Of a DNA stretch of 64,000 bases, positions 8 to 51,568 are shown one piece after another. The notes under the pieces were generated by a model. The model did not search any database. It saw only the letters and a program-made list of their open reading frames with translations, and was not told where the DNA came from. A program made the translations under genes and the position numbers. Source of the DNA: Phapecoctavirus DIJ07P1; the sequence record OZ035743.1. One strand, written 5' to 3'. Within the stretch, counting starts at the first letter, position 1, and each line of letters opens with the position of its first letter.

Positions 8-2032
8 ATGAATTTAACAAGACCTAATAGTGCGATAGCCGATCTAGTAGAAGCTACTTATCGAAAACGTCGCAGTTTTGAGGCAGGTTTTACATTACGT
101 AATTCCCGTGAAGTTTTGCTGTTAGCGGCAGAAGGGAATTATTACCAATGGAAAGGAACTTTTCCTAAAGTAGTTCCAGCAAACTCTACGCCAGCCACCA
201 CAGGTGGTATTTCTTCCCTTGCATGGCAAAGTGTTGGGACCGCTGATGATATAGCAATTATCAATGCCAAGTTTACGGCAATGCAGCAACAGATTGATGA
301 TCTGTCGGAAACAATACCTGAAGCTGGTAAATCGGCTTATCAGATCGCACTTGATAATGGTTTTGTTGGAACAGAAGCACAATGGCTTGCTTCTTTGAAA
401 GGGGATACTGGTGCTCAACTTAATATTAAAGGATCGTTAGCAAGCACTAGTGAACTACCATCTACAGGTAACGTTGCAGGGGATGGTTATATCGTAGGCG
501 ATGTGATTTACGCTTGGGACGGTTCTGTTTGGAAACTTATTTCTTCTCTTGGACCAGAAGGGAAATCAGCTTACGAGGTATGGTTGGCAGATGGTAATAC
601 AGGATCTGTTTATGACTTTCTTGCCTCTATAAAAGGTGATAAAGGAGACGTTGGTCCTACAGGTCCACAGGGTGCACCTGGTGTCAACGCTAATGGTTTT
701 GATTACCGTGGAGATTTGCCTTCTACAAGTAACTTACCACAACCCAACTCTGAAAACGTAAGCCAAGCTTATTCTATTAATGGTAATCTTTATGTCTCTA
801 ATGGGACAGCTTGGGTCAACATGGGTAATATTGTTGGTCCTCAAGGTCCACAAGGTGAGGCAGGTAAAGACGGTCTAGATGGAACAGATGGAGACGAAGG
901 GAAATCTGCATATCAAAGTTGGCTGGACGCTGGTAATGAAGGGACAGAAGTAGATTTTATTGCCTCGCTTAAAGGTCCAAAAGGAGACAAGGGAGAGCAA
1001 GGAGAACGAGGACCACAAGGCGAATTAGGTCCACAAGGACCAGTGGGTGCAACAGGATCAGGTTTAGAGATTATCGGGGTTCTGAACAGCGAAGCTGAAC
1101 TTCCTCCGACTGGAGAAGTAGGTGATGCATATAAAATTAATAATGATTTGTATGTTTGGGTTCAAGATGCTACAGAATGGATGAATGTTGGCAGTCTTGG
1201 AGGAACATCAATTACAGCCAAAGGTCATGTTCCGAACAGCGAGGCTCTCCCTGTTTATAATAACTATGGTGATGCCTACTTAACTGAGGACACTAGTAAT
1301 CTTTACATCTATACCTACGATCAAGACACCAATTCCGCATCTTTTGTTGACATGGGGAGTATTAAAGGTGACAAAGGTGAAAAAGGGGATAAAGGAGATA
1401 AGGGTGATCCTGGAACAAACGGAACCAACGGTACTGATGGAACCAACGGTAAGGACGGCGCACAGTGGTTTGTAGCAACAACTAATCCAGTCACAGGAGA
1501 TGGTGTTATCAATGATTACGCCTTCAATACTACCACTGGGGCAGTGTTTAAGAAAACAGATTCTTCTACGTGGACACTTATAGGAACTCTTCCTAGTATA
1601 CCAGAAGCCCCTCAAGATGGCTTGACGTATGGTCGTTCTGATGGAAACTGGATCGAAATATCAGGATCAGATCCTACGGAAGCTATAACACCAACTAGAG
1701 TTACAGCAGGTTTCATGGAACTTGAAACAACTACTGCCAACTCTGGAGCATCTTGGACTCCTTCTGGAACTTCCAATATGTATGTTGTTACAGTAACTGA
1801 CGCTTTGACAGTTGGAGCATGGCCTGGTGTCACTGGCTCTACAAAACCTAAAGCGTTTTCAGCAATGATTTATTTGATTCAAGATACAACGGGACACACG
1901 GTTACACTAGATGCGTCTTATGGAGCACTAAATGATACAGAAATAGCAACTACTGCTAACGCAGTAACAATTTTGCAATTAACGTATCCTGGTGTGGGCG
2001 ATATCGTGGACATGGTTGTTGTAACACGATAA
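8..2032 (+). CDS. Tail-fibre-like structural protein with collagen-like Gly-X-Y tracts
   Basis: 674-aa ORF; Gly-X-Y runs (GPKGDKGEQGERGPQGELGPQGPVGATG; KGDKGEKGDKGDKGDPGTNGTNGTDGTNGKDG) alternating with repeated GKSAYQ/GKSAYEVWL modules; terminator follows. Confidence 0.75.
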   Translation: MNLTRPNSAIADLVEATYRKRRSFEAGFTLRNSREVLLLAAEGNYYQWKGTFPKVVPANSTPATTGGISSLAWQSVGTADDIAIINAKFTAMQQQIDDLSETIPEAGKSAYQIALDNGFVGTEAQWLASLKGDTGAQLNIKGSLASTSELPSTGNVAGDGYIVGDVIYAWDGSVWKLISSLGPEGKSAYEVWLADGNTGSVYDFLASIKGDKGDVGPTGPQGAPGVNANGFDYRGDLPSTSNLPQPNSENVSQAYSINGNLYVSNGTAWVNMGNIVGPQGPQGEAGKDGLDGTDGDEGKSAYQSWLDAGNEGTEVDFIASLKGPKGDKGEQGERGPQGELGPQGPVGATGSGLEIIGVLNSEAELPPTGEVGDAYKINNDLYVWVQDATEWMNVGSLGGTSITAKGHVPNSEALPVYNNYGDAYLTEDTSNLYIYTYDQDTNSASFVDMGSIKGDKGEKGDKGDKGDPGTNGTNGTDGTNGKDGAQWFVATTNPVTGDGVINDYAFNTTTGAVFKKTDSSTWTLIGTLPSIPEAPQDGLTYGRSDGNWIEISGSDPTEAITPTRVTAGFMELETTTANSGASWTPSGTSNMYVVTVTDALTVGAWPGVTGSTKPKAFSAMIYLIQDTTGHTVTLDASYGALNDTEIATTANAVTILQLTYPGVGDIVDMVVVTR

Positions 2033-2035
2033 CAG

Positions 2036-2058
2036 AAGCCCCGAAAGGGGCTTTCTTT
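2036..2058 (+). terminator. Rho-independent terminator
   Basis: agccccgaaaggggct hairpin followed by T-run. Confidence 0.7.
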
Positions 2059-2073
2059 TTATGGAGGGTTTAA

Positions 2074-3840
2074 ATGTTTCCAATTCCAATATTTACTATT
2101 ATGACCAGCACTGGTGTCGTTCCTCTGCCAGCAGGTATTGTTAAAAAAGTAATCACTTTAGATTACCCAGATAATGCTGGTAATTCTAACAGCAGTTTAG
2201 CAATTTTGCTTAATGATGGTAGATTGTTTACTCAAGGCGCAAACCTTTTTGGTGAGATTGCAGATGGAACTCGTAGTGCACGATTCAATAATTTCCACTT
2301 AGCTTCTACTGTAGTAGCGGATGTGTTTACCGCAGATCGTTGTTTTGTTATTAAAACTAACAGTGGGGGATGGCAATATTCAGGATTGACAGCAGGGTTG
2401 GTAGGATCTATAGCAGCAGGTGGTACGGATGCATGTGTAACTACCTGGACCAGCTTTCCATCTGTAATAACAGGGACTATTTCTTTAGCCAATCTTAAAG
2501 AGGTTAAAGGAGGGTATAACAATACTCTCTGGTTAATGAATAGTGGTGTTCTTTATGGATCGGGTCAAAACACAGTGGGTAGTTTAGGTGCAAGCACTAC
2601 TAACGAAGTTTCTACTCCTCGTCAGATAACAAGCGCAGCAGTTGCTTTTGATGCAGGTTACAACCAATGCTCTTATGTCAACAATGTGGGAACCTTGCGT
2701 GTTTGTGGAGCTAGTAAAGGTTTAGCAGGTAATAATAACACAACAACAGCTTTTGTCAATGCCACAATATCCGCTACTGAAACAGTGTATGTCAAAGATT
2801 ACATCAATACAGTTTCCCAGACAATAGTTGTAGGAGATACCTCCGGTGGCACGGGTACAGTAAACTACTTATATGTTAGATCTAATACAGAAACAACCTA
2901 CACTAAACTGGATACCTTTGCAGCAGGTTTCTCAACATGGAAGTTTCCACCAAGCCGCCACTCTTTTTTCGTTGGGATCAATAATTCCTTGTGGGCTATT
3001 GGTAAGAACTACACTGCAAACTTAGGTTTGGGGTATGATTCTGCGAGCGGAGATCCACTCCAAGTGGGAAAACCAGTTAAACCTGAAGGAGTGGGTTCTT
3101 GGGATATAAACAAGCTCACAAGCGTTCATACGCTGAATATGGATGTTACTAACCAATTAGGTTATCAAGGAACCTTTTTCGTTTATAATGGAGATATGTA
3201 TTATTCCGGTATTTGGAAAGATGGGAAAGCCTCGTATCTGTTCAATAGTGGTCTAAACTATAATAAATTCACACCAATAGCAAGCTCCGTGATTACGGGC
3301 GATATTCTGGCAACTGGCTTAACTACAGATTCTTTAGGAATTTGTATTGTAGGTGGAACTAAACAGTTGACACATTCTGTTAGCCCAGAAGGAGGTAAAC
3401 TTTTCAATATTAAATACACTTCTTCTGCCCCTGCAAACATGACAATATCATCTACTGGTTTAATGACTTTCCATGCAGAAGGTGGTTTTGATGCAGGTAT
3501 GACAGCCTTAAACGCTGAAGGAACAACTTTATCAGATACCTCTGGAGGATATGCTTCAACATTGAGTGTTTACACCCCTAGCTTATCTGCGATGGATGTA
3601 GGAACAACACAAACAATGGTAGCAGAAATAACGCCAACAGGAGCAGCAAGCTTACCTGGTATGGTTGTTGAGTATTTCTCTAATGACCCTACGGTAGCAA
3701 CAGTTGACCCCGTTACAGGCGTTATTACAGCGGTTGCTGATGGAGGTTGTCGTATCGGTTGTAGAGCAACTTATCAAGGTGTGGTAACTGCCGAAGATAG
3801 TTCTTATCTCACAGTGAATGCTGTGGTGATTATGATTTGA
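2074..3840 (+). CDS. Tail fibre / structural protein with C-terminal Ig-like (Big_2-like) region
   Basis: 588-aa ORF, Gly/Thr/Ser/Asn-rich; C-terminal segment resembles bacterial Ig-like domain; RBS GGAGGG upstream. Confidence 0.65.
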   Translation: MFPIPIFTIMTSTGVVPLPAGIVKKVITLDYPDNAGNSNSSLAILLNDGRLFTQGANLFGEIADGTRSARFNNFHLASTVVADVFTADRCFVIKTNSGGWQYSGLTAGLVGSIAAGGTDACVTTWTSFPSVITGTISLANLKEVKGGYNNTLWLMNSGVLYGSGQNTVGSLGASTTNEVSTPRQITSAAVAFDAGYNQCSYVNNVGTLRVCGASKGLAGNNNTTTAFVNATISATETVYVKDYINTVSQTIVVGDTSGGTGTVNYLYVRSNTETTYTKLDTFAAGFSTWKFPPSRHSFFVGINNSLWAIGKNYTANLGLGYDSASGDPLQVGKPVKPEGVGSWDINKLTSVHTLNMDVTNQLGYQGTFFVYNGDMYYSGIWKDGKASYLFNSGLNYNKFTPIASSVITGDILATGLTTDSLGICIVGGTKQLTHSVSPEGGKLFNIKYTSSAPANMTISSTGLMTFHAEGGFDAGMTALNAEGTTLSDTSGGYASTLSVYTPSLSAMDVGTTQTMVAEITPTGAASLPGMVVEYFSNDPTVATVDPVTGVITAVADGGCRIGCRATYQGVVTAEDSSYLTVNAVVIMI

Positions 3841-3912
3841 CGCAAGAAACTATTCCGGCGGATTGGGGATCGAAGTTCATTACAGGTTTGAAATATTACG
3901 ACTAATAAAAAA

Positions 3913-3932
3913 GGGAACCCGCAAAGGTTCCC
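3913..3932. terminator. Bidirectional terminator between convergent genes
   Basis: gggaacc-cgcaaa-ggttccc hairpin flanked by A-run upstream and T-run downstream. Confidence 0.7.
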
Positions 3933-3968
3933 TTTTCTTTTATAAAAACTCTTTATAAATCAATAAGA

Positions 3969-4856
3969 TCAGAACGGAATATCATCGTCGAAGTCCATTG
4001 GAGGTTCTTCTTGATTACTTGGAGTTGGTTCTGGTTGTGGTTCAGGTTTCTTAACTTCTTTCTTCTCTTCTTTCTTAGGCTGTTCTGCGGAACCACGAAT
4101 GGCAGCAGCAACTTTATCAGACAGAGCCAGAACTTTACGAGCAGAGTCGATCAGATCTTCTACAGATACAGTCTTAATGGTATGGTCTTTACAAGCATTG
4201 AGGATAGCGTGACCAACAGATGCCCCAAGATCATAATCATTAATATCAACACCACGAGATTCAGCAATTTCCGATTTCAGTGTGACAGTTGCAGATTGAA
4301 CAACCCCAGCGATATCGAAAGCATCGCCTTTAACACCATTACGAATCAGTTCCAGTGCACCATTTACTGCGTGACCAGTTTCCAGACCTACAGTATCACG
4401 TTTTTTATAGGACTGCTTAGGAGCAGCATCGTTGGAACCTTTATTACCAGAAGATTTGTTAGACTTCTGAACACCATCGGTAGACAATACTGTAATACGA
4501 GATTTTTTAGTATTGTAGTAAGTTTTACCGCCTTTATTATCAACGCGATCAATATCAATACTTACTTCTACACCTTTTTCAATAGTGATCCAATTATCAC
4601 CTTCTTTGACTTGCAGGTTTTCATAACCTTCTTTCAGTTCAATGTCACCAAGAGAAATCCAAACACCTTTCTCATCTGGTTTAGCACCTTTCTCTTTCAG
4701 AACAAGAGAGGCTCGGTGAGTTGAAACAATCGTTTTTCCTTCCCAATGAAAAGTTTTAGGTTCAGCGAATTTATCCAGTTTAACGTAGTCTACGATACCA
4801 GTTGCATAAGTTACGGTTTTGCCTTTACGATCAGTTTCAGTATTAATTACGGACAT
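3969..4856 (-). CDS. ssb: Single-stranded DNA-binding protein
   Basis: 295 aa; C-terminus PMDFDDDIPF matches the acidic SSB tail (DDDIPF); Gly/Lys-rich linker before tail. Confidence 0.75.
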   Translation of the reverse strand: MSVINTETDRKGKTVTYATGIVDYVKLDKFAEPKTFHWEGKTIVSTHRASLVLKEKGAKPDEKGVWISLGDIELKEGYENLQVKEGDNWITIEKGVEVSIDIDRVDNKGGKTYYNTKKSRITVLSTDGVQKSNKSSGNKGSNDAAPKQSYKKRDTVGLETGHAVNGALELIRNGVKGDAFDIAGVVQSATVTLKSEIAESRGVDINDYDLGASVGHAILNACKDHTIKTVSVEDLIDSARKVLALSDKVAAAIRGSAEQPKKEEKKEVKKPEPQPEPTPSNQEEPPMDFDDDIPF

Positions 4857-4872
4857 TATTATCTCCTCTACA

Positions 4873-5265
4873 TTACATTAATTTTGCACAGAAAGAGCGG
4901 AGTCTTTCCATATCATCTTGCTCTAACAGGTATTTACCTTTACCTATTCCAACTCCAATTTCACCATTAGGAAAATGAACTATTTGCACTGGGAAACCTC
5001 CGAGTTTAATTGTGGCAGCTTTGCCTTCTTCGTCTATAACGTTTCGGATTGTATCTTGCAGTGAAATGAATTCTTTGTTTGTAACAGTGGTTTCAATTAT
5101 TTCAGATGTTTCGACACGAGCAGTTAGCTTCTTGTTTCCACCTTGAATAACCAAAATTTGAAAATAAAAAGAGTTGTCAAGACCTACAACATTTTTCTCA
5201 ACTAGTGTCAAACTGGTGTAGTTTCCATAAACAGTTTCAACAGCTATCTTAGAACGTTCAGTCAT
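4873..5265 (-). CDS. Hypothetical protein
   Basis: 130-aa ORF in compact minus-strand operon; no motif recognised. Confidence 0.55.
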   Translation of the reverse strand: MTERSKIAVETVYGNYTSLTLVEKNVVGLDNSFYFQILVIQGGNKKLTARVETSEIIETTVTNKEFISLQDTIRNVIDEEGKAATIKLGGFPVQIVHFPNGEIGVGIGKGKYLLEQDDMERLRSFCAKLM

Positions 5266-5310
5266 TGAATGCTATCCTATCATAAAATGTTTAATATTGT
5301 CAAGCTTTAA

Positions 5311-5904
5311 TTACCAAGGAATATCATCTTCTTCCAATCTGGTATCTACTTGAGGTGGACGTGGAACCTTAACCTCTTTCACAAAACGAAGATATGGGAA
5401 ACGTGTAGCAATTTTAATAACGTGTTTGGCATCTTCTCTAACATCTTTGTGCAAGAAGCAGATCCCTGTTTCCAAAGTTGTTTCAAAATCTTTAGAGTAA
5501 TAACAATCCTTCCCATCAAATGCAGCCTGGCAGATGGACAGATCAAACTCATTTAGAAAGGTTGTCATTACGCTTGGTTCCATAATCATAAGGTTGCAAA
5601 GCTGACCATCACGTTCAAACTCAAAAACGTGTTTAAGACCAGTAACACCCTCGTAGTTATCCGAAGCTTCTTTGTTTCCTAATTTACGAACATTAGTTCC
5701 CATCAAAGCAGATGCAATCAATTCTTGTATTTGCTCTTCTGATCGATGTGCAGGAAGAGACGTGTAAAAATCCAGATCACGTCCAGCAATATCAAGAATA
5801 CGCCAATCACGAACAGCGCCGCCAGCCAAGACAGAATTAGGATCAGCAATCTTTAATACGGTAAGAATTTCTTTGGCAATATTGATTTGTTTTGATTTAG
5901 TCAT
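5311..5904 (-). CDS. Pol-beta-type nucleotidyltransferase (CCA-adding-enzyme head-domain-like)
   Basis: 197 aa; LAGGAVRDW...DLD matches the GGxVRD plus DxD signature of tRNA nucleotidyltransferase head domains. Confidence 0.55.
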   Translation of the reverse strand: MTKSKQINIAKEILTVLKIADPNSVLAGGAVRDWRILDIAGRDLDFYTSLPAHRSEEQIQELIASALMGTNVRKLGNKEASDNYEGVTGLKHVFEFERDGQLCNLMIMEPSVMTTFLNEFDLSICQAAFDGKDCYYSKDFETTLETGICFLHKDVREDAKHVIKIATRFPYLRFVKEVKVPRPPQVDTRLEEDDIPW

Positions 5905-23582: not shown

Positions 23583-23602
23583 AAGTCTCTCCTATAAAAT
23601 AG

Positions 23603-23618
23603 CCTCCCGAAGGAGGCT
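23603..23618 (-). terminator. Hairpin downstream of terC
   Basis: gcctcc-cgaa-ggaggc stem-loop, A/T-rich tail on minus strand. Confidence 0.5.
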
Positions 23619-23624: not shown

Positions 23625-24599
23625 TTAAACAGAAGCTTCTTCTTTTTCAGGGAAGATAAAGCTTGCAATAACACCAAGAGATAATGTGCCTAGAACAATC
23701 ATCAGACTTACGTTAGGGGAAATATCATGCGGGAGGAATGACCACTTGGCATGAAGTGTTTCACCGAACGGGTGATACATAAGTTTAGCACCAACAAACA
23801 CCAGAACCACAGCAACAGCTTTCTCTAAGTGAACCAGATATTTCACAGCTACACTTAACACAAAGAAAAGTGCACGTAAACCAAGAACAGCCATCAGCAT
23901 TGCAGAATAAACTAGCAGAGGTTCTTGTGTCACACCGATCACAGCCGGAACTGAATCAAAAGAGAAGACAATATCTGTAAGCTCAATAACAAACACACAA
24001 AGAAGAGCAGGAGTTGCATATTTAATACCATTCTTAATGGTGATGAACTTTTCACCATCCAGTGCATTGTGCACAGGCAGAACTTTACCTACTAAACGAA
24101 CAGCCCAATGTTTAGAGTAATCAATATCCTCTTCTTCGTCACCACCTTTGATGATAGCCACGGCAGACCAAGCTACAATCAAACCGAACAACACTTGGAC
24201 CGACCAATGAAGGTTAAACAAAGCGGTCCCTGCTGCAACAAAAATACCTCGGAAGACAATGGCTCCTGCAATCCCCCAAAGTAGAATCTTATGTTGGAGA
24301 TGTGTGCTCTTAATTCCAAAGCTTGCAAAAATTGCCATGAACACCATTAGGTTATCTACAGAAAGACTCTTTTCCAACACATAGCCACTTAGGAAAAGCG
24401 CGGCAAACTCTTTACCATGTTCTACCCAAATGAATGCGTAATACCCTAAAGCTAAAGCAATCCAAAAAACAGACCAAAGCAAAGCAGATTTAATTCCAAT
24501 TTCTTTATTCTCTTTATGACCAAAGAAATCGATACCAATAGACAATGCCAAAATACCAACTAAAACAACTACATCAATAATTGGGAAACCGAGTTGCAT
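23625..24599 (-). CDS. terC: TerC-family integral membrane protein
   Basis: 324 aa, multiple hydrophobic segments; EKSLSVDN matches TerC signature. Confidence 0.8.
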   Translation of the reverse strand: MQLGFPIIDVVVLVGILALSIGIDFFGHKENKEIGIKSALLWSVFWIALALGYYAFIWVEHGKEFAALFLSGYVLEKSLSVDNLMVFMAIFASFGIKSTHLQHKILLWGIAGAIVFRGIFVAAGTALFNLHWSVQVLFGLIVAWSAVAIIKGGDEEEDIDYSKHWAVRLVGKVLPVHNALDGEKFITIKNGIKYATPALLCVFVIELTDIVFSFDSVPAVIGVTQEPLLVYSAMLMAVLGLRALFFVLSVAVKYLVHLEKAVAVVLVFVGAKLMYHPFGETLHAKWSFLPHDISPNVSLMIVLGTLSLGVIASFIFPEKEEASV

Positions 24600-24616
24600 T
24601 CTTTTCTCCTCTCTCT

Positions 24617-24677
24617 GCGGGGGAACTATTCCCCCGCTTCATGTGATATATCTTACTCTTTTTAAGAACTATGTCAA
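24617..24677 (-). promoter_or_regulatory. Promoter-leader cassette driving terC (TTGACA-16-TAAGAT plus 5' leader hairpin)
   Basis: Minus strand reads TTGACA-tagttcttaaaaagag-TAAGAT-atatcacatgaa-GCGGGGGAATAGTTCCCCCGC-agagagaggagaaaag-ATG; same architecture as the 46.5-52.7 kb array. Confidence 0.7.
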
Positions 24678-24680
24678 CAC

Positions 24681-24902
24681 TTATTTTGTTGAATGAGAGG
24701 AAAAGATTCCTCGTAATACCGCCAGAATAAACGAAACACAAACCACGGTCCAGAAGGTTACTGGGACAGTGATATCTGCATGACCCATAACTTCAGCAAC
24801 ATAGTTGTAAGCCAGCAACAGTAACCAAGCTGGAATCAAACTAAGCATAAAAGCAATAACAAAAAAGCTTACCACTGCAACAATACCTGCAAAAACACCC
24901 AT
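24681..24902 (-). CDS. Small membrane protein
   Basis: 73 aa, two hydrophobic segments. Confidence 0.5.
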   Translation of the reverse strand: MGVFAGIVAVVSFFVIAFMLSLIPAWLLLLAYNYVAEVMGHADITVPVTFWTVVCVSFILAVLRGIFSSHSTK

Positions 24903-24914
24903 ACTAATCTCCTC

Positions 24915-25388
24915 TTAAAGTTTATAAATAGTCACATCGTGACCTGTTTTTACTAAAGTTTCTTCAATCATCACTTGGATGATAGCCCAATTACCTCCAG
25001 CATATCCAGCGCCAATCATAGGTAAGCCGATCTTACATTTTTGGTCACGGAGAAGCAAATCATTAGCCATAGCTATTAGTGCATCGTAAAGTGCATCATA
25101 GTCCAACTGACGACCTTTAGCATTGTATCCGTAACGGTATTGCCCGTATAGATTATATACCAAAGGGTCTGATTGTTCGTCTGGCACCCCTAAACTAAAA
25201 GAACCTAACTTACTTTGATCACCAGCCATTGTGTCTAAATCTGCCGCATATGCATAAGGGAATGCTCGTTTAATTTGCGGAGCAATTCCTGCTCCCATAT
25301 TACACATACAATTGCAACAATGAGCAATAACAGTTACTTCACCTGCTTTAGCGGCATCAATAAGATTACCTGTTTTCATTTTAAGCAT
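24915..25388 (-). CDS. Macro-domain protein (ADP-ribose binding/processing)
   Basis: GNLIDAAKAGEVTVIAHCCNCMCNMGAGIA and IGLPMIGAGYAGG blocks resemble macro-domain motifs; start set at Met after AAGGAG RBS. Confidence 0.65.
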   Translation of the reverse strand: MLKMKTGNLIDAAKAGEVTVIAHCCNCMCNMGAGIAPQIKRAFPYAYAADLDTMAGDQSKLGSFSLGVPDEQSDPLVYNLYGQYRYGYNAKGRQLDYDALYDALIAMANDLLLRDQKCKIGLPMIGAGYAGGNWAIIQVMIEETLVKTGHDVTIYKL

Positions 25389-42746: not shown

Positions 42747-44207
42747 GTGCCAAAAATAGTCACTTGGGAACAATATAAAACAGATATAAAACAAGCTTAT
42801 CAAGGTAAGTCTTGGACTGTTGTAGATTATATTGAGCCGTGGAACGGCAATAAAACTAAACTTAGATGCATCTGTGCTCTGCATGGAGAATGGAAAACAA
42901 CAAGCATAAATACCGCTAAACTAGGGAGGGGTTGTCCAGAATGCGGTAGGGAGATTATAAGTAAAGCAGTATCTATAAACAAATCAAAAACCTGGGAGCA
43001 ATATAAAGAAGAAGTGCAAACCACTTACAATCAGGCAGGTAAGTTTTGGACTGTTACAGGATGGCACGGAGAATGGAAAGGATGGAATACTAAACTGGTT
43101 TGTTGTTGTGCTTTACATGGGGAGTGGAGGTCTACTTCTATATCTTCTGCGAAAAACGGGAGTGGATGCAGGAAGTGTATGGGAGAAGCAAACAGAGAAA
43201 GAACATCGATTGCATGGGAGAAACATAAAGAAGAAGTAGAAGAAGCTTATAAAGAAAAACCCTGGATTGTTAGAGGCTATGTGGAACCGTGGAACGGTTC
43301 CCGCACTAAGTTGATTTGTGAGTGTAAGGTTCATGGTCAATGGTGCACTACCACTGTAAACAGTGCTAAACAAGGGACTGGATGCTACAGTTGTCAAAGA
43401 GAAATGACGAAACAAAGGAATACAATGGAGGATAAACAACATGTTGAAGATTTTATAAAAGCTTGTCCTGATAATGTAGAGCGTAAATATTATCGTAGCG
43501 ATAGAGTAGATAGATTAGGTCGTCAGGTTTACTGGATTGTAGAATGTCCTATATGTGCAGAGGATGATTATTGTAAAGAAGGCTTATGCGATAATAAATT
43601 TGAGATGAAGATGAGTCATTTGAAAAGGGGTGGCCTTCCTTGCCGTTGTTCTAAATATTATCATTACACTCCTGAACAATGGGCCTACCGTATGACCAAA
43701 GCTTGCCAGGAACGAGGGGATCAATTTATAGGATTCATTGATAAGGTAAGCAATAACAGCAAGTTTAAATATCTATGTAGGGAGCATGGAGAGCAAACGA
43801 TCACACCTACCGATTATCTCAATGGGAAAGGTTGTCCAGGCTGTAAGAACAGAAATATGCAAGAATTTTACATCAATATTATTCTTGATGAGTACGGAGA
43901 AGACACGGGAGCTTACAAGTTGGGGATTGCAAAGGACAGTGATATCAGGATCAAAGGGCAGAATGCAAACAACAATTACTCTATGCGCCGTATAGCATTG
44001 TTCGATCTGCCGTCCTACCAAGCTTGCAGGGCGTTAGAGAGTAAGCTAAAGTCTAAGACTGATCAGATTCTACCGTCTATTGGCTGTGTAGAACGCTTGC
44101 ACATGAAAGATGGTCATAGTGAAACCTTCCTGCGCGAGGATTTGGCTATCGTCTTAAGTGCTATCAACCAAGCAGGTGGAATAATGAGAGAGGAGGAAAC
44201 ATGTTAG
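42747..44207 (+). CDS. Zinc-ribbon tandem-repeat protein with C-terminal GIY-YIG-like region
   Basis: 486 aa; four tandem ~75-aa repeats (W..YK...W.V..Y.EPWNG..TKL.C.C..HGEW.TTS.N.AK.G.GC..C); C-terminal EFYINIIL...GAYKLGIA. Confidence 0.7.
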   Translation: MPKIVTWEQYKTDIKQAYQGKSWTVVDYIEPWNGNKTKLRCICALHGEWKTTSINTAKLGRGCPECGREIISKAVSINKSKTWEQYKEEVQTTYNQAGKFWTVTGWHGEWKGWNTKLVCCCALHGEWRSTSISSAKNGSGCRKCMGEANRERTSIAWEKHKEEVEEAYKEKPWIVRGYVEPWNGSRTKLICECKVHGQWCTTTVNSAKQGTGCYSCQREMTKQRNTMEDKQHVEDFIKACPDNVERKYYRSDRVDRLGRQVYWIVECPICAEDDYCKEGLCDNKFEMKMSHLKRGGLPCRCSKYYHYTPEQWAYRMTKACQERGDQFIGFIDKVSNNSKFKYLCREHGEQTITPTDYLNGKGCPGCKNRNMQEFYINIILDEYGEDTGAYKLGIAKDSDIRIKGQNANNNYSMRRIALFDLPSYQACRALESKLKSKTDQILPSIGCVERLHMKDGHSETFLREDLAIVLSAINQAGGIMREEETC

Positions 44208-45298: not shown

Positions 45299-45353
45299 TA
45301 TTTTAACTTTTTTCATTTTTAGAACAAAGGTGTCACTTTGTAGCACAGAAATA

Positions 45354-45380
45354 AGGCTCCTACAGCACCGTAGAGAGCCT
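45354..45380 (+). terminator. Rho-independent terminator
   Basis: aggctc-ctacagcaccgtagag-agcct hairpin followed by gttattttgt. Confidence 0.65.
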
Positions 45381-45540
45381 GTTATTTTGTCCTATACAAA
45401 CCCTTGTCTTTTTCAGTTTGCATCACTAGGATTCGATCTGAGTGGGTTCCTGAAGGTTTACCAATAAGATTAAAGGTTATATCAAATTCCCACTATCTTT
45501 TATCTCAAAAATCCCTCAAATTATTTAAACTTTTTAAGAA

Positions 45541-45717
45541 TTTACAAAAATGAAAGTACAAAAGCAAAATTTAAAGTTTAGGAAAATTATCTTAAAATGT
45601 TAGATACAAAACAAAACTCAAAAGTCAAGGAAAATTTTAAAAATTTTGCGCGCCCACAGTATTTAAAGTTTTTTTGCTTTTACAAAAATGAAAGTACAAA
45701 AGCAAAATTTAAAGTTT
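45541..45717. repeat. 40-bp direct repeat pair in AT-rich intergenic region
   Basis: tttacaaaaatgaaagtacaaaagcaaaatttaaagttta at 45541..45580 and 45678..45717. Confidence 0.8.
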
Positions 45718-45740
45718 ACAAAAATTTTTATGCAGGTGAA

Positions 45741-45846
45741 AATGAGAAGAGTTCTCATATGGAAATGCAAATGATAATGATTCGCATTTAAGTTTATAAA
45801 TGAGATTGATTCTTATTTAATAAGGTAAATGACAATCATTCTCATT
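45741..45846. promoter_or_regulatory. Four tandem ~19-bp palindromes resembling the Fur box
   Basis: aatgagaagagttctcat; aatgataatgattcgcatt; aatgagattgattcttatt; aatgacaatcattctcatt at ~28-bp spacing; last copy matches GATAATGATAATCATTATC at 14/16 aligned positions. Confidence 0.45.
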
Positions 45847-46106
45847 TAGAGAATGACGCGCAGGGGCGGTGTTTGTCTCGCGCTCCCGTGTCCCCTCGCC
45901 ATGTAATAAGAATAACAGATCCAGCCAGGAAAGCAAGCGATTATTTTATCTTTACATTTCTTTACAAATATATAGCACCCAGCCTACCGGCGATCAACCT
46001 TCCAACCAGTGCCCCCTGGTATGTTAGCCCCGCCTTTACGCCGTGGGGTGGCGCTTCCTCTTCTGTATGTAAAACAGTATAAGCCCGATCCCTGGGCTTG
46101 TCAAGA

Positions 46107-46373
46107 TTATTTTTTGTTTTCTTGCCAGGATAGGACACCTAACCAAAAATACATATCGCCCCGCGCCCCTGGTGGTATCTTGCTTTCCCCGCCGCCACTG
46201 CAAGCCCATAGATAACCATTTGCGAACGTATCAAAATGATCTATCTCTTCCACCTTATGATCGCCCAGGTTGAGAACGGTTTCAACCTTTAAGCCCGTTG
46301 CGCTTGCTACCTGGTGCACCGTGCCGCCTTGCCAGCCCAATGAGTGCATAAGGTGTAATGTAGTATTTGTCAT
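46107..46373 (-). CDS. Hypothetical protein in GC-rich island
   Basis: 88-aa ORF; competing ORFs on both strands; weak RBS. Confidence 0.35.
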   Translation of the reverse strand: MTNTTLHLMHSLGWQGGTVHQVASATGLKVETVLNLGDHKVEEIDHFDTFANGYLWACSGGGESKIPPGARGDMYFWLGVLSWQENKK

Positions 46374-46482
46374 GATATCGCCCTTTCTTTGTTGTGCGCC
46401 CTGGTTGGCGCGGTAGAAAGATAATAGCCCTTTTCTTTATATATAGCAAGCAAAAAGAAAATAAAAAAGATTGAAAAATGGT

Positions 46483-46540
46483 TGACGTTAACCAGGCGGC
46501 GGCGTAGTATTCATCTTGTAGGGCGGCAATGGTGCCGCTC
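46483..46540 (+). promoter_or_regulatory. Promoter-leader cassette 1
   Basis: TTGACG-spacer-TAGTAT then tagGGCGGCAATGGTGCCGCtc leader hairpin. Confidence 0.6.
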
Positions 46541-46559
46541 ACTATTTGGAGTTAAGATC

Positions 46560-46757
46560 ATGGCAACATTGCACATTGTGGCGAAAGCTGGACAAATCAA
46601 CGTAGTGGTAAACGGTTTTACTGAGTTCAGTCACCCCCAGGATGATCATGAAACGGTTTTATCTTTCATTGATTCCCTGTTAGAAATGGGAGTCATTACA
46701 GAAGACCAGCACGCTACAAAATGCAAGCGCGTTAATCAAATTGCAGGAATAGAATAA
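46560..46757 (+). CDS. Hypothetical small protein
   Basis: Start set at MATLHIVAK after GGAG RBS. Confidence 0.55.
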   Translation: MATLHIVAKAGQINVVVNGFTEFSHPQDDHETVLSFIDSLLEMGVITEDQHATKCKRVNQIAGIE

Positions 46758-46763
46758 AAAGTA

Positions 46764-46823
46764 TTGACAACAAACAACAACCTGATAAGATGTATCACAT
46801 AGGGCGGCGGAATGGTCCACCGC
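46764..46823 (+). promoter_or_regulatory. Promoter-leader cassette 2
   Basis: TTGACA-16-TAAGAT-gtatcacat-aGGGCGGCGGAATGGTCCACCGC; then cacaacagaagagagattatcatc-ATG. Confidence 0.7.
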
Positions 46824-46848
46824 TCACAACAGAAGAGAGATTATCATC

Positions 46849-47121
46849 ATGGCATCATATAGCGCAACAATGATCGTAGCTGGCACCACTGGTAAACCTA
46901 TGCGCGGTGGCGGATCTTTCGCTAATATCAATATTGACGGGCGTTTATCCCTGGACGCAGCGATCACCGTGGCGCGGGAAACATTTAAGAAAGAATGTAA
47001 ATTCAATAAACAAGATTATCTCGGTTTTGCTATTGAAAAAACCGCGCGCTTTGTTGATTATAAAAGCCCGAAAATGGTTGACACTACATTAAAAGCGCAA
47101 GATGTAGCGTTTTTGCTTTAA
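46849..47121 (+). CDS. Hypothetical small protein
   Basis: 90-aa ORF after cassette 2. Confidence 0.6.
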   Translation: MASYSATMIVAGTTGKPMRGGGSFANINIDGRLSLDAAITVARETFKKECKFNKQDYLGFAIEKTARFVDYKSPKMVDTTLKAQDVAFLL

Positions 47122-47124
47122 GGC

Positions 47125-47180
47125 TTGACATTAACGAATAATTTGTTAATATGTTACATAAAGCGGGAATAGTTCCCGCT
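47125..47180 (+). promoter_or_regulatory. Promoter-leader cassette 3
   Basis: TTGACA-16-TAATAT then GCGGGAATAGTTCCCGC hairpin. Confidence 0.65.
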
Positions 47181-47197
47181 ATTTGTAAGGTGGTAGA

Positions 47198-47455
47198 ATG
47201 TTTTACATCAAATTAAAAGGTCACGTGATCGCGTTCAAAGATAACGCTTTTTACAGATTAGCAAAATATGCGTTAATACATCCCCACTATGTTTATATAA
47301 GGGGGCGTGATGAAATAAATATCTTTGATCAAACAACATGCGAGAACATCGAGATCCGCAAGGTTGGCGTACGTGATTATCGTACATCTTTCTACCCTTG
47401 CAAGGATTCAGCAAGTCTTTTTAAAGTATGCCAATTGTTGAAAAAAGGTGGTTAA
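47198..47455 (+). CDS. Hypothetical small protein
   Basis: 85-aa ORF, RBS AAGGTGG. Confidence 0.6.
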   Translation: MFYIKLKGHVIAFKDNAFYRLAKYALIHPHYVYIRGRDEINIFDQTTCENIEIRKVGVRDYRTSFYPCKDSASLFKVCQLLKKGG

Positions 47456-48014
47456 TATGGGCCGCGAATATGTGATCCAGTCTTGGGTAAAACATGAAGC
47501 AGATGATCCGCGCATCATTCCCGATCATCTTATCGATGAATCCACGGGATATAGTGGTGAGCAAATAGGTAACAGATTAGCACGTAGTAACGGCAACGTA
47601 AAAGCGCGTTATGTGCGCCCTGGTTGGCTGGCAAATGGTAACGCTGATTTATCCAGTGCGGAAGATGCGAGCGACGGCGCGAAAGATAATCCTTTGTACA
47701 AAGTTGATCCAGCTTTTCGTGTCCTGGATGAATACCCCAGCAAGATAGCGGCGCTCGATCAGGCCCTGGAAAGTAAGCGCATCACCTGGACCGCTTACAA
47801 CATGGCAAAAAACGTACTTGATGGTAAATTGATTCAAGCTGAAAGAAAATTAGCCAAAATTGCAGCCATAGCCCAGGAGGAAGACGAGGAGACAACGGAA
47901 GAGGAAGAGTACGAAGAGATCCCGCCGTTGTTGTGTGTTGATGCTTTTCCTGATTATCAGCCGACAGAGGAAGAAAAAAGGATCGCACTAGAAAACTTTG
48001 AAAATAGTCTTTGA
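47448..48014 (+). CDS. Hypothetical acidic protein
   Basis: 188-aa ORF co-transcribed with previous; start 47448 or 47456. Confidence 0.6.
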   Translation: MVNMGREYVIQSWVKHEADDPRIIPDHLIDESTGYSGEQIGNRLARSNGNVKARYVRPGWLANGNADLSSAEDASDGAKDNPLYKVDPAFRVLDEYPSKIAALDQALESKRITWTAYNMAKNVLDGKLIQAERKLAKIAAIAQEEDEETTEEEEYEEIPPLLCVDAFPDYQPTEEEKRIALENFENSL

Positions 48015-48068
48015 CATATCGCCGCCACTGGCATAATATTTACCACGTAGGGCGGCAATGGTGCCGCT
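48012..48068 (+). promoter_or_regulatory. Promoter-leader cassette 4
   Basis: TTGACA-16-CATAAT then GCGGCAATGGTGCCGC hairpin. Confidence 0.65.
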
Positions 48069-48096
48069 CATAGTGAAATTATGCAAGAGGCTTACA

Positions 48097-48192
48097 ATGA
48101 TTAATAAAGAAAATAGCTTGACGGTTGGAACGATTAACGCTATCATTCTAGCCGTTCCATTTTGGGTTGTAGTAGCGGCTATTATTTTCTAA
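48097..48192 (+). CDS. 31-aa hydrophobic peptide
   Basis: MINKENSLTVGTINAIILAVPFWVVVAAIIF read manually; RBS AAGAGG; only ORF after cassette 4. Confidence 0.4.
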   Translation: MINKENSLTVGTINAIILAVPFWVVVAAIIF

Positions 48193-48200
48193 AAATATTC

Positions 48201-48261
48201 TTGACAACGTTTTTTAATCTGATAAGATGTATCACATAGGGCGGCGGAATACTTCCCCGCC
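48201..48261 (+). promoter_or_regulatory. Promoter-leader cassette 5
   Basis: TTGACA-16-TAAGAT-gtatcacat-aGGGCGGCGGAATACTTCCCCGCC. Confidence 0.7.
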
Positions 48262-48284
48262 AAAACAAAAAAAAGGGTAACACA

Positions 48285-48647
48285 ATGAGCAAGCAAATCA
48301 ATACTATCATGTTTAATCTGGTATCTTTCCGCGATGATATGAAAAATTTACCACGTGAAACGGTTGATATTCATGTTTCAGCTTATCGCGCCCTTATTGA
48401 CATGTTACCGCTAAAACGTGATCAACATGCCGCTAATATGATGCTTAATGCTATGCTTAAAAAGATGATTCAAACGGATCTTACTCTGGCGTATGAGTAT
48501 CAAGGGCGCTTATATGCGACTTACAACAAAGCGGTACCTGGTCTGGGAAGTACCGAAGAGTTGCACGGCTTAAACCTGGATCAAAACACTTGGGATAGTA
48601 TGCGCCGCGTTATGGTATGGGCCGAAAGCGGTAAAATTTACGAATAA
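48285..48647 (+). CDS. Hypothetical protein
   Basis: 120-aa ORF. Confidence 0.6.
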   Translation: MSKQINTIMFNLVSFRDDMKNLPRETVDIHVSAYRALIDMLPLKRDQHAANMMLNAMLKKMIQTDLTLAYEYQGRLYATYNKAVPGLGSTEELHGLNLDQNTWDSMRRVMVWAESGKIYE

Positions 48648-48654
48648 AAACGGT

Positions 48655-48710
48655 TGACACTGTTTAAACTTCTGGTATAGTTTATCACGTAGGGCGGCAA
48701 TGGTGCCGCC
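48655..48710 (+). promoter_or_regulatory. Promoter-leader cassette 6
   Basis: TTGACA-16-TATAGT-ttatcacgt-aGGGCGGCAATGGTGCCGCC. Confidence 0.7.
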
Positions 48711-48730
48711 AACAATAAAAGGTTAACATC

Positions 48731-48910
48731 ATGGCTATCATTGCAAAAACTGAGATTATAGGTTTAGATTCGATCCTCCTGGCTTATGAGGAAACTTTAA
48801 AAATGTATGTAGTGACCTATGGTGATTATGTGCGTGAATACGAATACATTGATCTTGCTTTCGAATGTTACATTCGCCAGGTCAATAAAGCCTATAATGA
48901 TTATCGTTAA
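48731..48910 (+). CDS. Hypothetical small protein (59 aa, below ORF-track cutoff)
   Basis: MAIIAKTEIIGLDSILLAYEETLKMYVVTYGDYVREYEYIDLAFECYIRQVNKAYNDYR read manually. Confidence 0.5.
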   Translation: MAIIAKTEIIGLDSILLAYEETLKMYVVTYGDYVREYEYIDLAFECYIRQVNKAYNDYR

Positions 48911-48929
48911 AAGTTTTAGTCTTATACTA

Positions 48930-48981
48930 TTGACAATGAGTGATAGTATAAGCATAATAACTTTTATCGGGAATACTTCCC
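48930..48981 (+). promoter_or_regulatory. Promoter-leader cassette 7 (degenerate hairpin)
   Basis: TTGACA-17-CATAAT then CGGGAATACTTCCC. Confidence 0.55.
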
Positions 48982-49007
48982 ACTAACCAAAAAGAGAGAG
49001 TGACACC

Positions 49008-49373
49008 ATGGCTATTAATATCAATGTTTCCGCTTATGCTACCCTGGCTAACACGGCTAAAATTGAATTATCCAGCATTGAGGCGGTGCATATTAGCGCC
49101 CGTCGCTGGTTTCAACAGTCCTACGGTAACACATATTTTTCTTTAATGGTTGACGTTGAGATCGGCGGTAAACTGATCGAGGTGGTTAACGTTCCGTTTC
49201 AATATGGCTATGGTGATCATTTTGATACCGTCGCCCTGGAAGAATTTAGCAAGGTTATCAACCTTGAGGGCAAGGAATTTTCACGCGGCGCGTATCTTTC
49301 CCGTTTTTGCCGTGACAATGGGATCACTGTATACAGTCATGCAAGCGATGTAAAACGTAAAAAAGATTTATAA
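49008..49373 (+). CDS. Hypothetical protein
   Basis: 121-aa ORF. Confidence 0.6.
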   Translation: MAININVSAYATLANTAKIELSSIEAVHISARRWFQQSYGNTYFSLMVDVEIGGKLIEVVNVPFQYGYGDHFDTVALEEFSKVINLEGKEFSRGAYLSRFCRDNGITVYSHASDVKRKKDL

Positions 49374-49379
49374 AAAGCA

Positions 49380-49438
49380 TTGACAGCACGAATAAAAAGA
49401 GTAAACTGTATTACATAGAGAGCGGGAATAGTTCCCGC
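49380..49438 (+). promoter_or_regulatory. Promoter-leader cassette 8
   Basis: TTGACA-16-TAAACT-gtattacatagaga-GCGGGAATAGTTCCCGC. Confidence 0.65.
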
Positions 49439-49462
49439 CTCATTCAAAGAGAGATTATCATC

Positions 49463-49702
49463 ATGGCTATTACTAAAACTTACAACGGTCACAAAAACAA
49501 AACTCACTGGAATGTAAGCCTTTGGATTAATAACGACGAATCATTATATCGGTTGGCGAAAGAATTTATCGCCGCTAATACTAATCGTAATGATGCTGCC
49601 CGTGATATGATGTTATTCCTGGAACAAACTGGACAAGATAAAACTCCAGACGGTTTCAAGTATAGCACTACAGCGATCCGCGCCGCGATGGTTGGAATGT
49701 AA
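49463..49702 (+). CDS. Hypothetical small protein
   Basis: 79-aa ORF. Confidence 0.6.
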   Translation: MAITKTYNGHKNKTHWNVSLWINNDESLYRLAKEFIAANTNRNDAARDMMLFLEQTGQDKTPDGFKYSTTAIRAAMVGM

Positions 49703-49711
49703 TAAAAACAG

Positions 49712-49771
49712 TTGACAACGTTTAAAATTAGTGTAAGATGTATCACATAGGGCGGGAAGTGGTTTCCCGCC
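49712..49771 (+). promoter_or_regulatory. Promoter-leader cassette 9
   Basis: TTGACA-16-TAAGAT-gtatcacat-aGGGCGGGAAGTGGTTTCCCGCC (perfect 8-bp stem). Confidence 0.7.
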
Positions 49772-49793
49772 AACAACAGAGAGATTAAAGATT

Positions 49794-50021
49794 ATGGCTA
49801 TCAATATTGTTCGCGTATCCGGCACCGTTGGCACTTCCCAGGTTATTGCAGTTGTAACAAACAAAAAGATTAATGATGTATGTGAGATCTTGAATAAGTG
49901 GGCTATTGCTAATTTTGGGGAATATGCAAGCGTCGAGTACATCGAATCCTACCAGGTGCCAACCATCAGCCTGACCGATCTCAACGTTGATCGCCTGTTA
50001 TGCCTGGATGAATTAATCTGA
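49794..50021 (+). CDS. Hypothetical small protein
   Basis: 75-aa ORF. Confidence 0.6.
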   Translation: MAINIVRVSGTVGTSQVIAVVTNKKINDVCEILNKWAIANFGEYASVEYIESYQVPTISLTDLNVDRLLCLDELI

Positions 50022-50032
50022 AAAAGATTGTT

Positions 50033-50086
50033 GACACGGGAAAGAAAAAGAGTAAACTGTTACAGGTAGGGCGGGAATAGTGCCGC
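50033..50086 (+). promoter_or_regulatory. Promoter-leader cassette 10 (hybrid hairpin)
   Basis: TTGACA...TAAACT-gttacaggt-aGGGCGGGAATAGTGCCGC; 5' arm of one variant with 3' arm of another. Confidence 0.6.
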
Positions 50087-50111
50087 TCACAACAGAAGAG
50101 AGATTATCACG

Positions 50112-50324
50112 ATGGCTAATATCCGCACACTGTTAAAAAATGCAAGTCAAGTTTTATTTTCTGATCACGATCATTTTAATAAAGATATTACAGGCGTGAA
50201 GAATATCAAAGATGTAAAAAGTGTTATGGGTATATATTGCAATGTTAAACGTGTTGGAACGTTCGGTGATAAAGTATTGTACCAATCAGGTGATTACAAT
50301 TTTACTTTGACGATTATTTCATAA
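50112..50324 (+). CDS. Hypothetical small protein
   Basis: 70-aa ORF. Confidence 0.6.
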   Translation: MANIRTLLKNASQVLFSDHDHFNKDITGVKNIKDVKSVMGIYCNVKRVGTFGDKVLYQSGDYNFTLTIIS

Positions 50325-50329
50325 AACGC

Positions 50330-50391
50330 TTGCAATACTGCAAAAATAAAGTAAACTGTATTACATCAAGGCGGCGGAATGGTCCACCGCC
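50330..50391 (+). promoter_or_regulatory. Promoter-leader cassette 11
   Basis: TTGCAA...TAAACT-gtattacatca-aGGCGGCGGAATGGTCCACCGCC. Confidence 0.6.
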
Positions 50392-50415
50392 TAACAAAGA
50401 GAAGAGGAAAATATT

Positions 50416-50583
50416 ATGATCACTTTCGCTACCCGTGAAGCCGCTCGCAACGTTGCACGTAAAGTTAACGCCGCCAACCTGGGCGCTACGCTTAAAGCCC
50501 CTGTAAAAGATGAATCAGGAAAATGGATCTTCCCTGGTCTACGTCATGCTGACAAGTTAGGTACTTTAAGCCTTAAAAAATAA
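50416..50583 (+). CDS. Hypothetical small basic protein (55 aa, below ORF-track cutoff)
   Basis: MITFATREAARNVARKVNAANLGATLKAPVKDESGKWIFPGLRHADKLGTLSLKK read manually; shares MITFA start with 50836..51057. Confidence 0.5.
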   Translation: MITFATREAARNVARKVNAANLGATLKAPVKDESGKWIFPGLRHADKLGTLSLKK

Positions 50584-50585
50584 TC

Positions 50586-50625
50586 GTTGACTTTTCGTTA
50601 TAGCGCCTTATAATGGGCGCTATAG
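50586..50625 (+). promoter_or_regulatory. Promoter with -10 embedded in a palindrome
   Basis: TTGACT-17-TATAAT with atagcgcc / ggcgctat inverted repeat flanking the -10. Confidence 0.55.
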
Positions 50626-50660
50626 AGAAGAGAAACCAGTCACAACAGAGAGAAAATATC

Positions 50661-50822
50661 ATGACCAATAAAGAAAAAGCCATCATTAAAGCACATTATC
50701 CACATCTAACATTACGTTTTAAAGCCGATGGATCTGTTATGGCCTCCAGTGGGCGCGGGTATGCTTACGGTTTACTTTACACCGCACAACAAGCGCAAGA
50801 TCATTTAAACGCAGTAAAATAA
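50661..50822 (+). CDS. Hypothetical small protein
   Basis: Start set at MTNKEK after GAGAGAAAA RBS (ORF track begins 50613). Confidence 0.5.
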   Translation: MTNKEKAIIKAHYPHLTLRFKADGSVMASSGRGYAYGLLYTAQQAQDHLNAVK

Positions 50823-50835
50823 CAAGGAAACCATT

Positions 50836-51057: not shown

Positions 51058-51060
51058 AGC

Positions 51061-51117
51061 TTGACACCGATTTAATTTTTAGTAAACTGTTACAGGTAGG
51101 GCGGGAATAGTTCCCGC
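51061..51117 (+). promoter_or_regulatory. Promoter-leader cassette 12
   Basis: TTGACA...TAAACT-gttacaggt-aGGGCGGGAATAGTTCCCGC. Confidence 0.7.
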
Positions 51118-51136
51118 TCAAAAAGAGAGAAAGACC

Positions 51137-51490: not shown

Positions 51491-51496
51491 TAAACC

Positions 51497-51549: not shown

Positions 51550-51568
51550 TCATATGAAGAGGAAACAA

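Follow-up and report, generated by a model that had tools for sequence, protein, structure and literature searches.

A Promoter and 5′ Hairpin Upstream of terC in Phapecoctavirus DIJ07P1 Belong to the Same Cassette Family as a Distant Array

Introduction

Bacterial TerC genes are classically controlled by yybP-ykoY. Stabilizing structures at the 5′ end of an mRNA have a precedent in the leader hairpin of T7 phi10 and, reportedly, in the 5′ stem-loop of ompA (Emory, Bouvet, and Belasco, 1992); the limit for such 5′-terminal protection is said to lie at ~2-4 unpaired nt. Morons are reportedly autonomous promoter-gene-terminator insertions in phage genomes (Juhala/Hendrix, 2000). The concept comes from temperate lambdoid phages, in which morons are expressed from the prophage.

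Promoter-early stem-loop (PeSL) cassettes were described in RB49/phi1 and in other T4-type phages (Arbiol et al., 2010, PMC2839356; Comeau et al., 2014, PMC4122927). They combine a consensus sigma70 early promoter with a GC-rich stem-loop ahead of ORFans, and they mediate modular shuffling (PMC2839356, PMC4122927). The stem-loop is usually found between or over the promoter hexamers and was shown to terminate transcription (PMC2839356).

Phapecoctavirus (Stephanstirmvirinae) comprises virulent myoviruses with a genome of ~150 kb. A search of the literature on transcription in Phapecoctavirus and Stephanstirmvirinae found no paper on the leaders described here, and no transcriptome, start-site, timing, or half-life data for the subfamily. 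The DNA analyzed, referred to as the window, is a stretch of 64,000 nucleotides from Phapecoctavirus DIJ07P1 (OZ035743.1). It shares 99.5% identity with the Escherichia phages ESCO13 and Ro121lw and ~89% with phAPEC8 over the terC locus. For the ~86 kb of the DIJ07P1 genome beyond the window, the whole genome of phAPEC8 was used as a stand-in. Genes are directed leftward from 4 to 38 kb and rightward from ~40 kb. Since terC sits in the leftward arm of this divergent genome, its position on the strand opposite to the array has no special meaning.

Structure of the terC Locus

The minus strand of the window reads aacaaaataagtgTTGACAtagttcttaaaaagagTAAGATatatcacatgaaGCGGGGGAATAGTTCCCCCGCagagagaGGAGaaaagaATG from 24690 to 24597, with gtgTTGACAtagttcttaaaaagagTAAGATatatcacatgaaGCGGGGGAATAGTTCCCCCGCagagagaggagaaaagaATG as the letters of the cassette upstream of terC. 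Between 24677 and 24597 this corresponds to TTGACA, 16 nt, TAAGAT, 12 nt, the hairpin GCGGGGGAAtagTTCCCCCGC, 17 nt containing GGAG, and the ATG of a TerC-family gene. An earlier note had read TTGACA-16-TAAGAT-hairpin-ATG at this place, and its letters were found to be correct; the only amendment is that the linker from hairpin to ATG measures 17 nt, not 16.

The -35 hexamer TTGACA (24672-24677, minus strand) is preceded by AATAAGTG. It lies at the same place in the orthologues and within a promoter feature of the phAPEC8 record JX561091. After a 16-nt spacer follows the -10 hexamer TAAGAT (24650-24655, minus strand), giving 10 of 12 matches to the consensus. Sites of the form TTGACN-16/17-TAnnnT are found 28 times in the window, compared to 7.4 ± 2.8 in shuffles. 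The initial transcribed region, atATCACATgaa, occupies 24638-24649 (minus strand), and from sigma70 geometry the transcript is predicted to start at ~24644-24642 (minus strand), 6-8 nt past the -10. The leader hairpin, GCGGGGGAA-uag-UUCCCCCGC (24617-24637, minus strand), has 9 bp and a triloop; its folding energy is -16.4 kcal/mol (z -4.25), and its assignment is supported by this energy, by covariation among orthologues, and by a match to a model built from the array only. It is followed by a purine-rich, single-stranded linker (24600-24616, minus strand), which is unpaired in the centroid fold and in which GGAG and its spacing are invariant among orthologues. The GGAG Shine-Dalgarno sequence (24606-24609, minus strand) is located 6 nt 5′ of the ATG (24599) and is unpaired in the predicted fold beside the stable hairpin.

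The terC coding sequence (23625-24599, minus strand) encodes 324 aa; it matches Pfam PF03741 (E 3e-40) and is annotated as TerC/Alx in relatives. Six nt 3′ of its stop codon a terminator-like hairpin, AGCCUCC-uucg-GGAGGCU followed by AUUUUAU, is found at 23591-23618 (minus strand). Its stem-loop (23618-23601; -15.2 kcal/mol, z -4.0) has a UUCG loop and a short U-run, the combination of GC-rich hairpin and U-tract by which a terminator is recognized. The leader hairpin was also considered as an intrinsic terminator and rejected: it is followed by AGAGAGAGGAG, an A-rich tail with no U-tract, and the terminator scan did not list it.

Upstream of terC lies a 73-aa ORF whose stop codon is 3 nt before the -35, and the 81-nt intergenic gap between this ORF and terC houses the cassette. 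The ORF itself (24681-24902, minus strand; phrog_16065) is hydrophobic and probably encodes a membrane protein; unrelated small ORFs take its place in Justusliebigvirus and Klebsiella relatives. That the cassette drives terC, as had been claimed, is supported by the 81-nt gap, by the geometry of the orthologues, and by the independent promoter annotation in JX561091, where a "putative host dependent promoter determined with MEME" is placed at 121933-121971, directly 5′ of terC.

Kinship of the terC Cassette With the Array

The array consists of ~17 paralogous promoter-hairpin-leader cassettes (46482-52720, plus strand), each of which heads a small ORF of unknown function. It was previously estimated to lie 22 kb from terC; the array is real and 21.8 kb away. 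Its units take the form TTGACA-16/17-(-10)-(g)tatcacrTAGG-hairpin-purine-rich leader-ATG. The -10 and the hairpin are 12 nt apart at terC, compared to 7-16 nt in the array (mean 10.2 ± 2.1 nt, almost always 8-12), and the distance from hairpin to ATG across units is 20.9 ± 3.4 nt; the hairpin is tied somewhat more tightly to the -10 than to the ATG.

The terC element proved to be a member of the array's cassette family; it has in common with the array units the -35, the 16-nt spacer, TAAGAT, the ATCACAT initial region, the GGGAATAGTTCCC core, and the purine-rich leader. Its TAAGAT recurs at units 46764, 48201, 49712, and 51964. The 15-mer TAAGATnTATCACAT covers the -10 together with the initial transcribed region; its five copies, where none is expected, are at terC and at four array units only. 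Similarly, the GGGAATAGTTCCC core of the terC hairpin is identical in units 47162, 49422, 51099, 52005, and 52673, and the 21-nt hairpin pattern had no matches in shuffles. In a repeat alignment the terC cassette is 71-82% identical to array units over 42-51 nt, spacer positions included. The shared spacer positions suggest that the terC cassette and the array units are of common descent, beyond any shared function.

Further evidence came from a covariance model, R1, seeded with seven in-register array units and with terC left out. This array-only model recovered 24612-24644 (minus strand) with 25.8 bits and an E-value of 1.5e-5 (211,737 bases, both strands), and its best other match outside the array in the window had an E-value of 9.5. 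A model of the whole array was abandoned because MAFFT put two stem-length classes out of register. R1 is weak on GCGGCAATGGTGCCGC-type copies (E 0.04-1.5), and sequence-independent scans filled this gap. In the window a stable hairpin follows 13 of 46 sigma70-like sites, these being 12 array units and terC, and GC-rich hairpins with an AAT[A/G]G loop are found in the array and at terC only. Three scans of the whole phAPEC8 genome, one with the array model, one for promoter plus hairpin independent of sequence, and one for hairpins independent of a promoter, agreed in placing promoter-linked array-type hairpins in the array (which wraps around the ends of the record) and at terC only. Both strands of the window and of complete phAPEC8 having thus been scanned for the cassette, array-type copies are limited to these two places. 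The proposal that terC and the array genes form the same regulatory class is therefore supported at the level of sequence and structure for the lineage of the window. That terC would be co-expressed early with the array genes is a reasonable inference from the sigma70-type sequence alone.

A few non-array promoters bear 5′ hairpins of unrelated sequence. In phAPEC8, at 45695 (minus strand), a 5′ hairpin (UGGGAGGA..UCCUCCCA) is followed by AAGGAG and ATG upstream of phAPEC8_00112, which adjoins thymidylate synthase. Several strong sigma70-like promoters of the same phage, for example 10427 (minus strand) in the window, which equals 107482 (minus strand) in phAPEC8, have no hairpin at all, so a hairpin would not be required for expression.

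Among 65 records matched, the cassette is confined to Stephanstirmvirinae. Records named as Campylobacter phages (A145, A110a, B15), Pseudomonas phage PsgM04F, and an Acinetobacter phage are 76-99% identical to the coliphage group, and the hosts they name seem questionable.

Conservation of the terC Unit in Relatives

Ten distinct terC leaders were compared, from the window, phAPEC8, WPEC4, tuntematon, VEcB, ESCO9, the Klebsiella phages KP2025 and phi1_175008, and two IMG/VR contigs, representing the lineages Phapecoctavirus, Justusliebigvirus, and Klebsiella phages. All ten are composed of TTGAC(A/T), a 16-nt spacer, a -10, a gap of 9-12 nt, a hairpin, 7-8 nt, GGAG, 6 nt, and ATG. Among the relatives compared, KP13-16 has terC but not the cassette.

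The arms of the stem vary considerably: GCGGGGGAA/TTCCCCCGC in the window, GCGGGGAA/TTCCCCGC in WPEC4 and tuntematon, GCGGGGA/TCCCCGC in phAPEC8, GCGGAGGA/TCCTCCGC in VEcB, GAGGGAG/CTCCCTC in KP2025, and GGGAGAG/CTCTCCC in one IMG/VR contig. Changes on both sides were found in five of eight stem pairs. In the alignment 92.5% of cells are paired, compared to 56-69% with the partner slid, and the covariation score was reached by none of 500 shuffles; the row of the window is shifted by one base in this alignment, which only lowers the observed values. In WPEC4 and tuntematon a paired G/C deletion shortens the stem. These compensatory changes show that the predicted terC hairpin is under selection as a structure. 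In other genera its sequence has drifted from that of the array and the structure alone is kept, with loops (GUGGU, AUUGU, AUAGG) at most one substitution from AURGU.

A hairpin is present 3′ of terC in every relative examined, again with compensatory variants. The ORFs that flank the unit on both sides are unrelated between genera, and in Justusliebigvirus nucleotide homology begins within the terC promoter. With a terminator of its own 3′ of terC and neighboring ORFs that vary from genus to genus, the unit is considered autonomous, and promoter, hairpin, terC, and putative terminator constitute a conserved, moron-like module.

Gene Content and Exchange in the Array

The array of the window and that of phAPEC8 (one genome pair) differ twice in gene content, with breaks at a cassette -35 (49712, corresponding to phAPEC8 145900) and at a repeated terminator (~52950). 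At the first, four cassette-plus-ORF units in the window (48166-49711) stand in place of two different ORFs in phAPEC8 (145359-145899), and the right breakpoint falls exactly on the cassette -35. At the second, the terminator at 52959-52994 marks the junction, and a 4.2-kb block of phAPEC8 (1218-5450, five cassette units) is absent from the window; this terminator and the one at 51715-51750 are canonical and 94% identical to each other. Canonical terminators in the array stand apart from the leader hairpins.

Two units depart from the common form. In the hairpin at 50069-50086, GCGGGAATAGTGCCGC, a GCGGGAA-type 5′ arm is joined to a TGCCGC-type 3′ arm; the stem is weakened (-9.4 kcal/mol), and the hairpin looks like a recombinant with a crossover in the loop. 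Unit 50587-50625 has no leader hairpin; its -10, TATAAT, forms part of a hairpin loop (ATAGCGCC/GGCGCTAT), an arrangement that resembles the PeSL subclass whose stem-loop overlaps the -10.

These observations bear on a reading in which the cassette is a composite module of the PeSL type, its stem-loop attenuating or insulating read-through and serving as a patch of homology, instead of acting as a 5′-end element of terC mRNA. A consensus sigma70 promoter with a GC-rich stem-loop is repeated here, as there, in an ORFan-rich region (PMC2839356). The breaks at 49712 and at the repeated terminator, the hybrid hairpin, and unit 50587 with its hairpin over the -10 all fit, as do the genus-specific ORFs around terC and the start of homology inside its promoter. 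However, the hairpins are followed by A-rich tails without a U-tract, with the true terminators of the array being separate, and their position past the -10 is fixed, whereas PeSL stem-loops are mostly within or overlapping the promoter. Moreover, the single-copy terC hairpin compensates even where its sequence matches no array copy, which is unexpected for a recombination patch. This reading of the terC hairpin is thus considered decidedly unlikely.

Other features were noted around the array. Just 5′ of it, in AT-rich non-coding DNA, are two 72-nt direct repeats (45517-45588 and 45655-45726; 88% identical). These are followed on their 3′ side by an unusually GC-rich stretch (45850-46400) with an 88-aa ORF (46107-46373, minus strand; phrog_19316, unknown function) and a sigma70-like site (46104-46076, minus strand). 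An origin, a terminus, and a control region are all conceivable roles for this upstream region. Farther left, three repeats within coding DNA (42765-43297, plus strand) are ~225 nt apart and 66-76% identical, suggesting tandem paralogous domains or genes.

Sequence Conservation of the Array Hairpins

The array hairpins keep their primary sequence (GCGG..A-AU[A/G]GU..CCGC, with a 5′ UAGG) across three genera. Most of 24 distinct hairpins from these genera retain the A-U-R-G-U loop, the GCGG base of the stem, and the 5′ UAGG, at a coding identity of only ~70-76%. The 9-nt tails after the 24 hairpins are 56% A and 14% T. Such conservation hints at recognition by some factor or at homogenization by gene conversion.

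Recognition is the basis of a second reading, in which the hairpin tags a regulon: it would be an RNA site through which a trans-acting factor of phage or host treats early-array and terC transcripts as one class. Such a factor might be, for example, a nut/boxB-type antiterminator, a shut-off nuclease, or a translational repressor. The loop, stem base, and UAGG kept at such coding divergence speak for this, as do the ~20 copies per genome, all just past early-type promoters, and the terC loops of other lineages within one substitution of AURGU. On the other hand, no candidate for the factor was found, as all nine array-region ORFs tested fall in PHROG families of unknown function only; boxA-like strings are not enriched, with none on the sense strand beside the hairpin; the stems and loops of terC drift freely between genera; and gene conversion among ~20 paralogues could equally explain the sequence conservation. 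Taken together, a regulon tag is possible but unlikely. If it were true, the tag would switch an early regulon of ~20 transcription units, including terC, on or off together, and Stephanstirmvirinae would possess a new system of control akin to nut or RegB.

Known RNA elements were also considered. A nut site of the lambda type was rejected since there is no boxA: YGCTCTTTA (up to one mismatch) was found 42 times compared to 33 ± 5.7 expected, and not once on the sense strand beside the hairpin. A riboswitch or other known RNA family was rejected as well, since the window had no Rfam match at gathering scores. At relaxed thresholds, E ≤ 10 over 24400-24950 and E ≤ 1 over 45300-53400, Rfam returned noise only.

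RNA Hairpin or DNA Element

An inverted repeat may also act as double-stranded DNA, either as an operator bound by a repressor dimer or as a promoter specific to the phage. The repeat is almost perfectly palindromic and lies at about +5 to +25, a place from which a repressor could obstruct RNA polymerase, and JX561091 contains ten 20-nt features labeled "putative promoter determined with PHIRE." Once extracted, however, these 20-mers proved to be the hairpin motif (GTAGGGCGGCAATGGTGCCG and similar). A full sigma70 promoter stands immediately 5′ of each, which identifies the PHIRE 20-mer as leader and not as a separate phage-specific promoter. An operator in duplex form was judged unlikely since half-sites and spacings differ among copies of one genome (GCGGCA-4-TGCCGC, GCGGGAA-3-TTCCCGC, GGCGGCGGA-4-TCCACCGCC), each of which is still self-complementary. 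An RNA of the sense strand is favored by G.U over A.C pairs (10 compared to 3) and by the asymmetric loop. A role as a DNA element is therefore highly improbable.

An open pattern search of IMG/VR, in which the 5′ flank and the outer GCGG/CCGC were fixed, gave 82 matches, 10 promoter-linked and 72 promoter-less. In the promoter-linked matches 17 of 18 free inner positions are paired, compared to 53 of 135 in the promoter-less ones. Most of the 82 are promoter-less chance matches and served as a negative control, not as new members.

The array repeat had already been noticed in JX561091 and labeled as a promoter, and the promoter half of the terC cassette was likewise already in GenBank. In the ASO2A record a "terminator" is annotated beneath the matched array unit and coincides with the leader hairpin. 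These annotations can now be corrected: the PHIRE promoters of phAPEC8 and the terminator of ASO2A would be transcribed leader hairpins behind ordinary sigma70 promoters.

A Probable Host-Read Early Promoter With a 5′ Hairpin

The most likely explanation, with a probability of roughly 0.55, is that the cassette is an early promoter for host sigma70 whose transcript starts a few nt before a protective or insulating 5′ hairpin. Host RNA polymerase of the sigma70 type would read the terC promoter before the phage takes over, resulting in early transcription, and terC would obtain its own transcript inside a long leftward gene block. The product would be a monocistronic terC mRNA of ~1.05 kb with stable structures at both ends. 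Its first structure would be the GC-rich hairpin, ~3-7 nt from the predicted 5′ end, which may slow 5′-end-dependent decay by RppH and RNase E and may keep the ribosome-binding site unstructured. The cassettes could double as repeated homology for the exchange of gene modules.

Several points temper this explanation. With a start 6-8 nt past the -10, an unpaired 5′ tail of 3-5 nt is predicted for the array units and one of 5-7 nt for terC, which reaches or exceeds the ~2-4 nt limit of 5′ protection. The strong promoters that have no hairpin, and KP13-16 with its terC lacking the cassette, also count against it. The hairpins of the array conserve more sequence than a generic stabilizer would need. 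RNase E, moreover, readily bypasses a simple stem-loop away from the terminus (PMC9943677), which weakens a role of a non-terminal hairpin as an obstacle to this enzyme.

In this phage subfamily one accessory gene of the replication and metabolism arm, terC, is marked with the module used for the putatively early ORFan genes, which suggests that TerC is wanted at once after infection. The cassette offers a concrete entry point for experiments on early gene control in these phages, which are often put forward for phage therapy. As a compact unit with a strong promoter, a hairpin, and a free ribosome-binding site, it could also serve as an expression part.

Comparison With Known Systems

As in the yybP-ykoY Mn2+ riboswitch and the alx PRE leader, a structured 5′ leader precedes a TerC-family gene. 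The phage leader, however, is only ~45 nt long, with a single hairpin and no match in Rfam. The lambda nut site (boxA and boxB) likewise puts a short, GC-rich hairpin into the nascent transcript close behind early promoters. Unlike lambda nut, the element described here has no boxA and no purine-rich GNRA-like pentaloop, no N-like protein was identified, and a copy is present at every promoter whereas lambda has one nut per operon.

Like the ompA 5′ UTR and the T7 phi10 leader, the terC leader places a stable hairpin near the predicted mRNA 5′ end, 5′ of a free ribosome-binding site, and as with ompA-type stem-loops the terC orthologues keep structure rather than sequence. The differences from the ompA type are the predicted unpaired tail of 3-7 nt, which is over the optimum, and the conservation of sequence as well in array copies. 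The terC unit resembles morons in that an accessory gene has its own promoter and terminator between neighbors that vary by genus. Unlike morons, it is found in a virulent myovirus and is conserved across most of the subfamily.

Of the systems described so far, PeSL cassettes come closest to the array. An A/T-rich upstream region, a consensus sigma70 promoter, a GC-rich stem-loop, and a Shine-Dalgarno sequence are common to both; the cassettes are repeated many times before small ORFans in a plastic region, and the indels of relatives end at cassettes (in one pair here). The copy at terC is itself outside the repeated array region, unlike the PeSL-like array units. Further differences are that the phages belong to another subfamily, with no sequence homology claimed, and that the stem-loop is almost always 8-12 nt past the -10, so that it would be transcribed as a 5′ leader. 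It also has no U-tract, and covariation supports an RNA hairpin. The idea of a mobile promoter/stem-loop cassette can in this way be extended past the T4-type phages. The terC element is real and conserved, yet it joins a type of regulatory cassette already familiar from phages.
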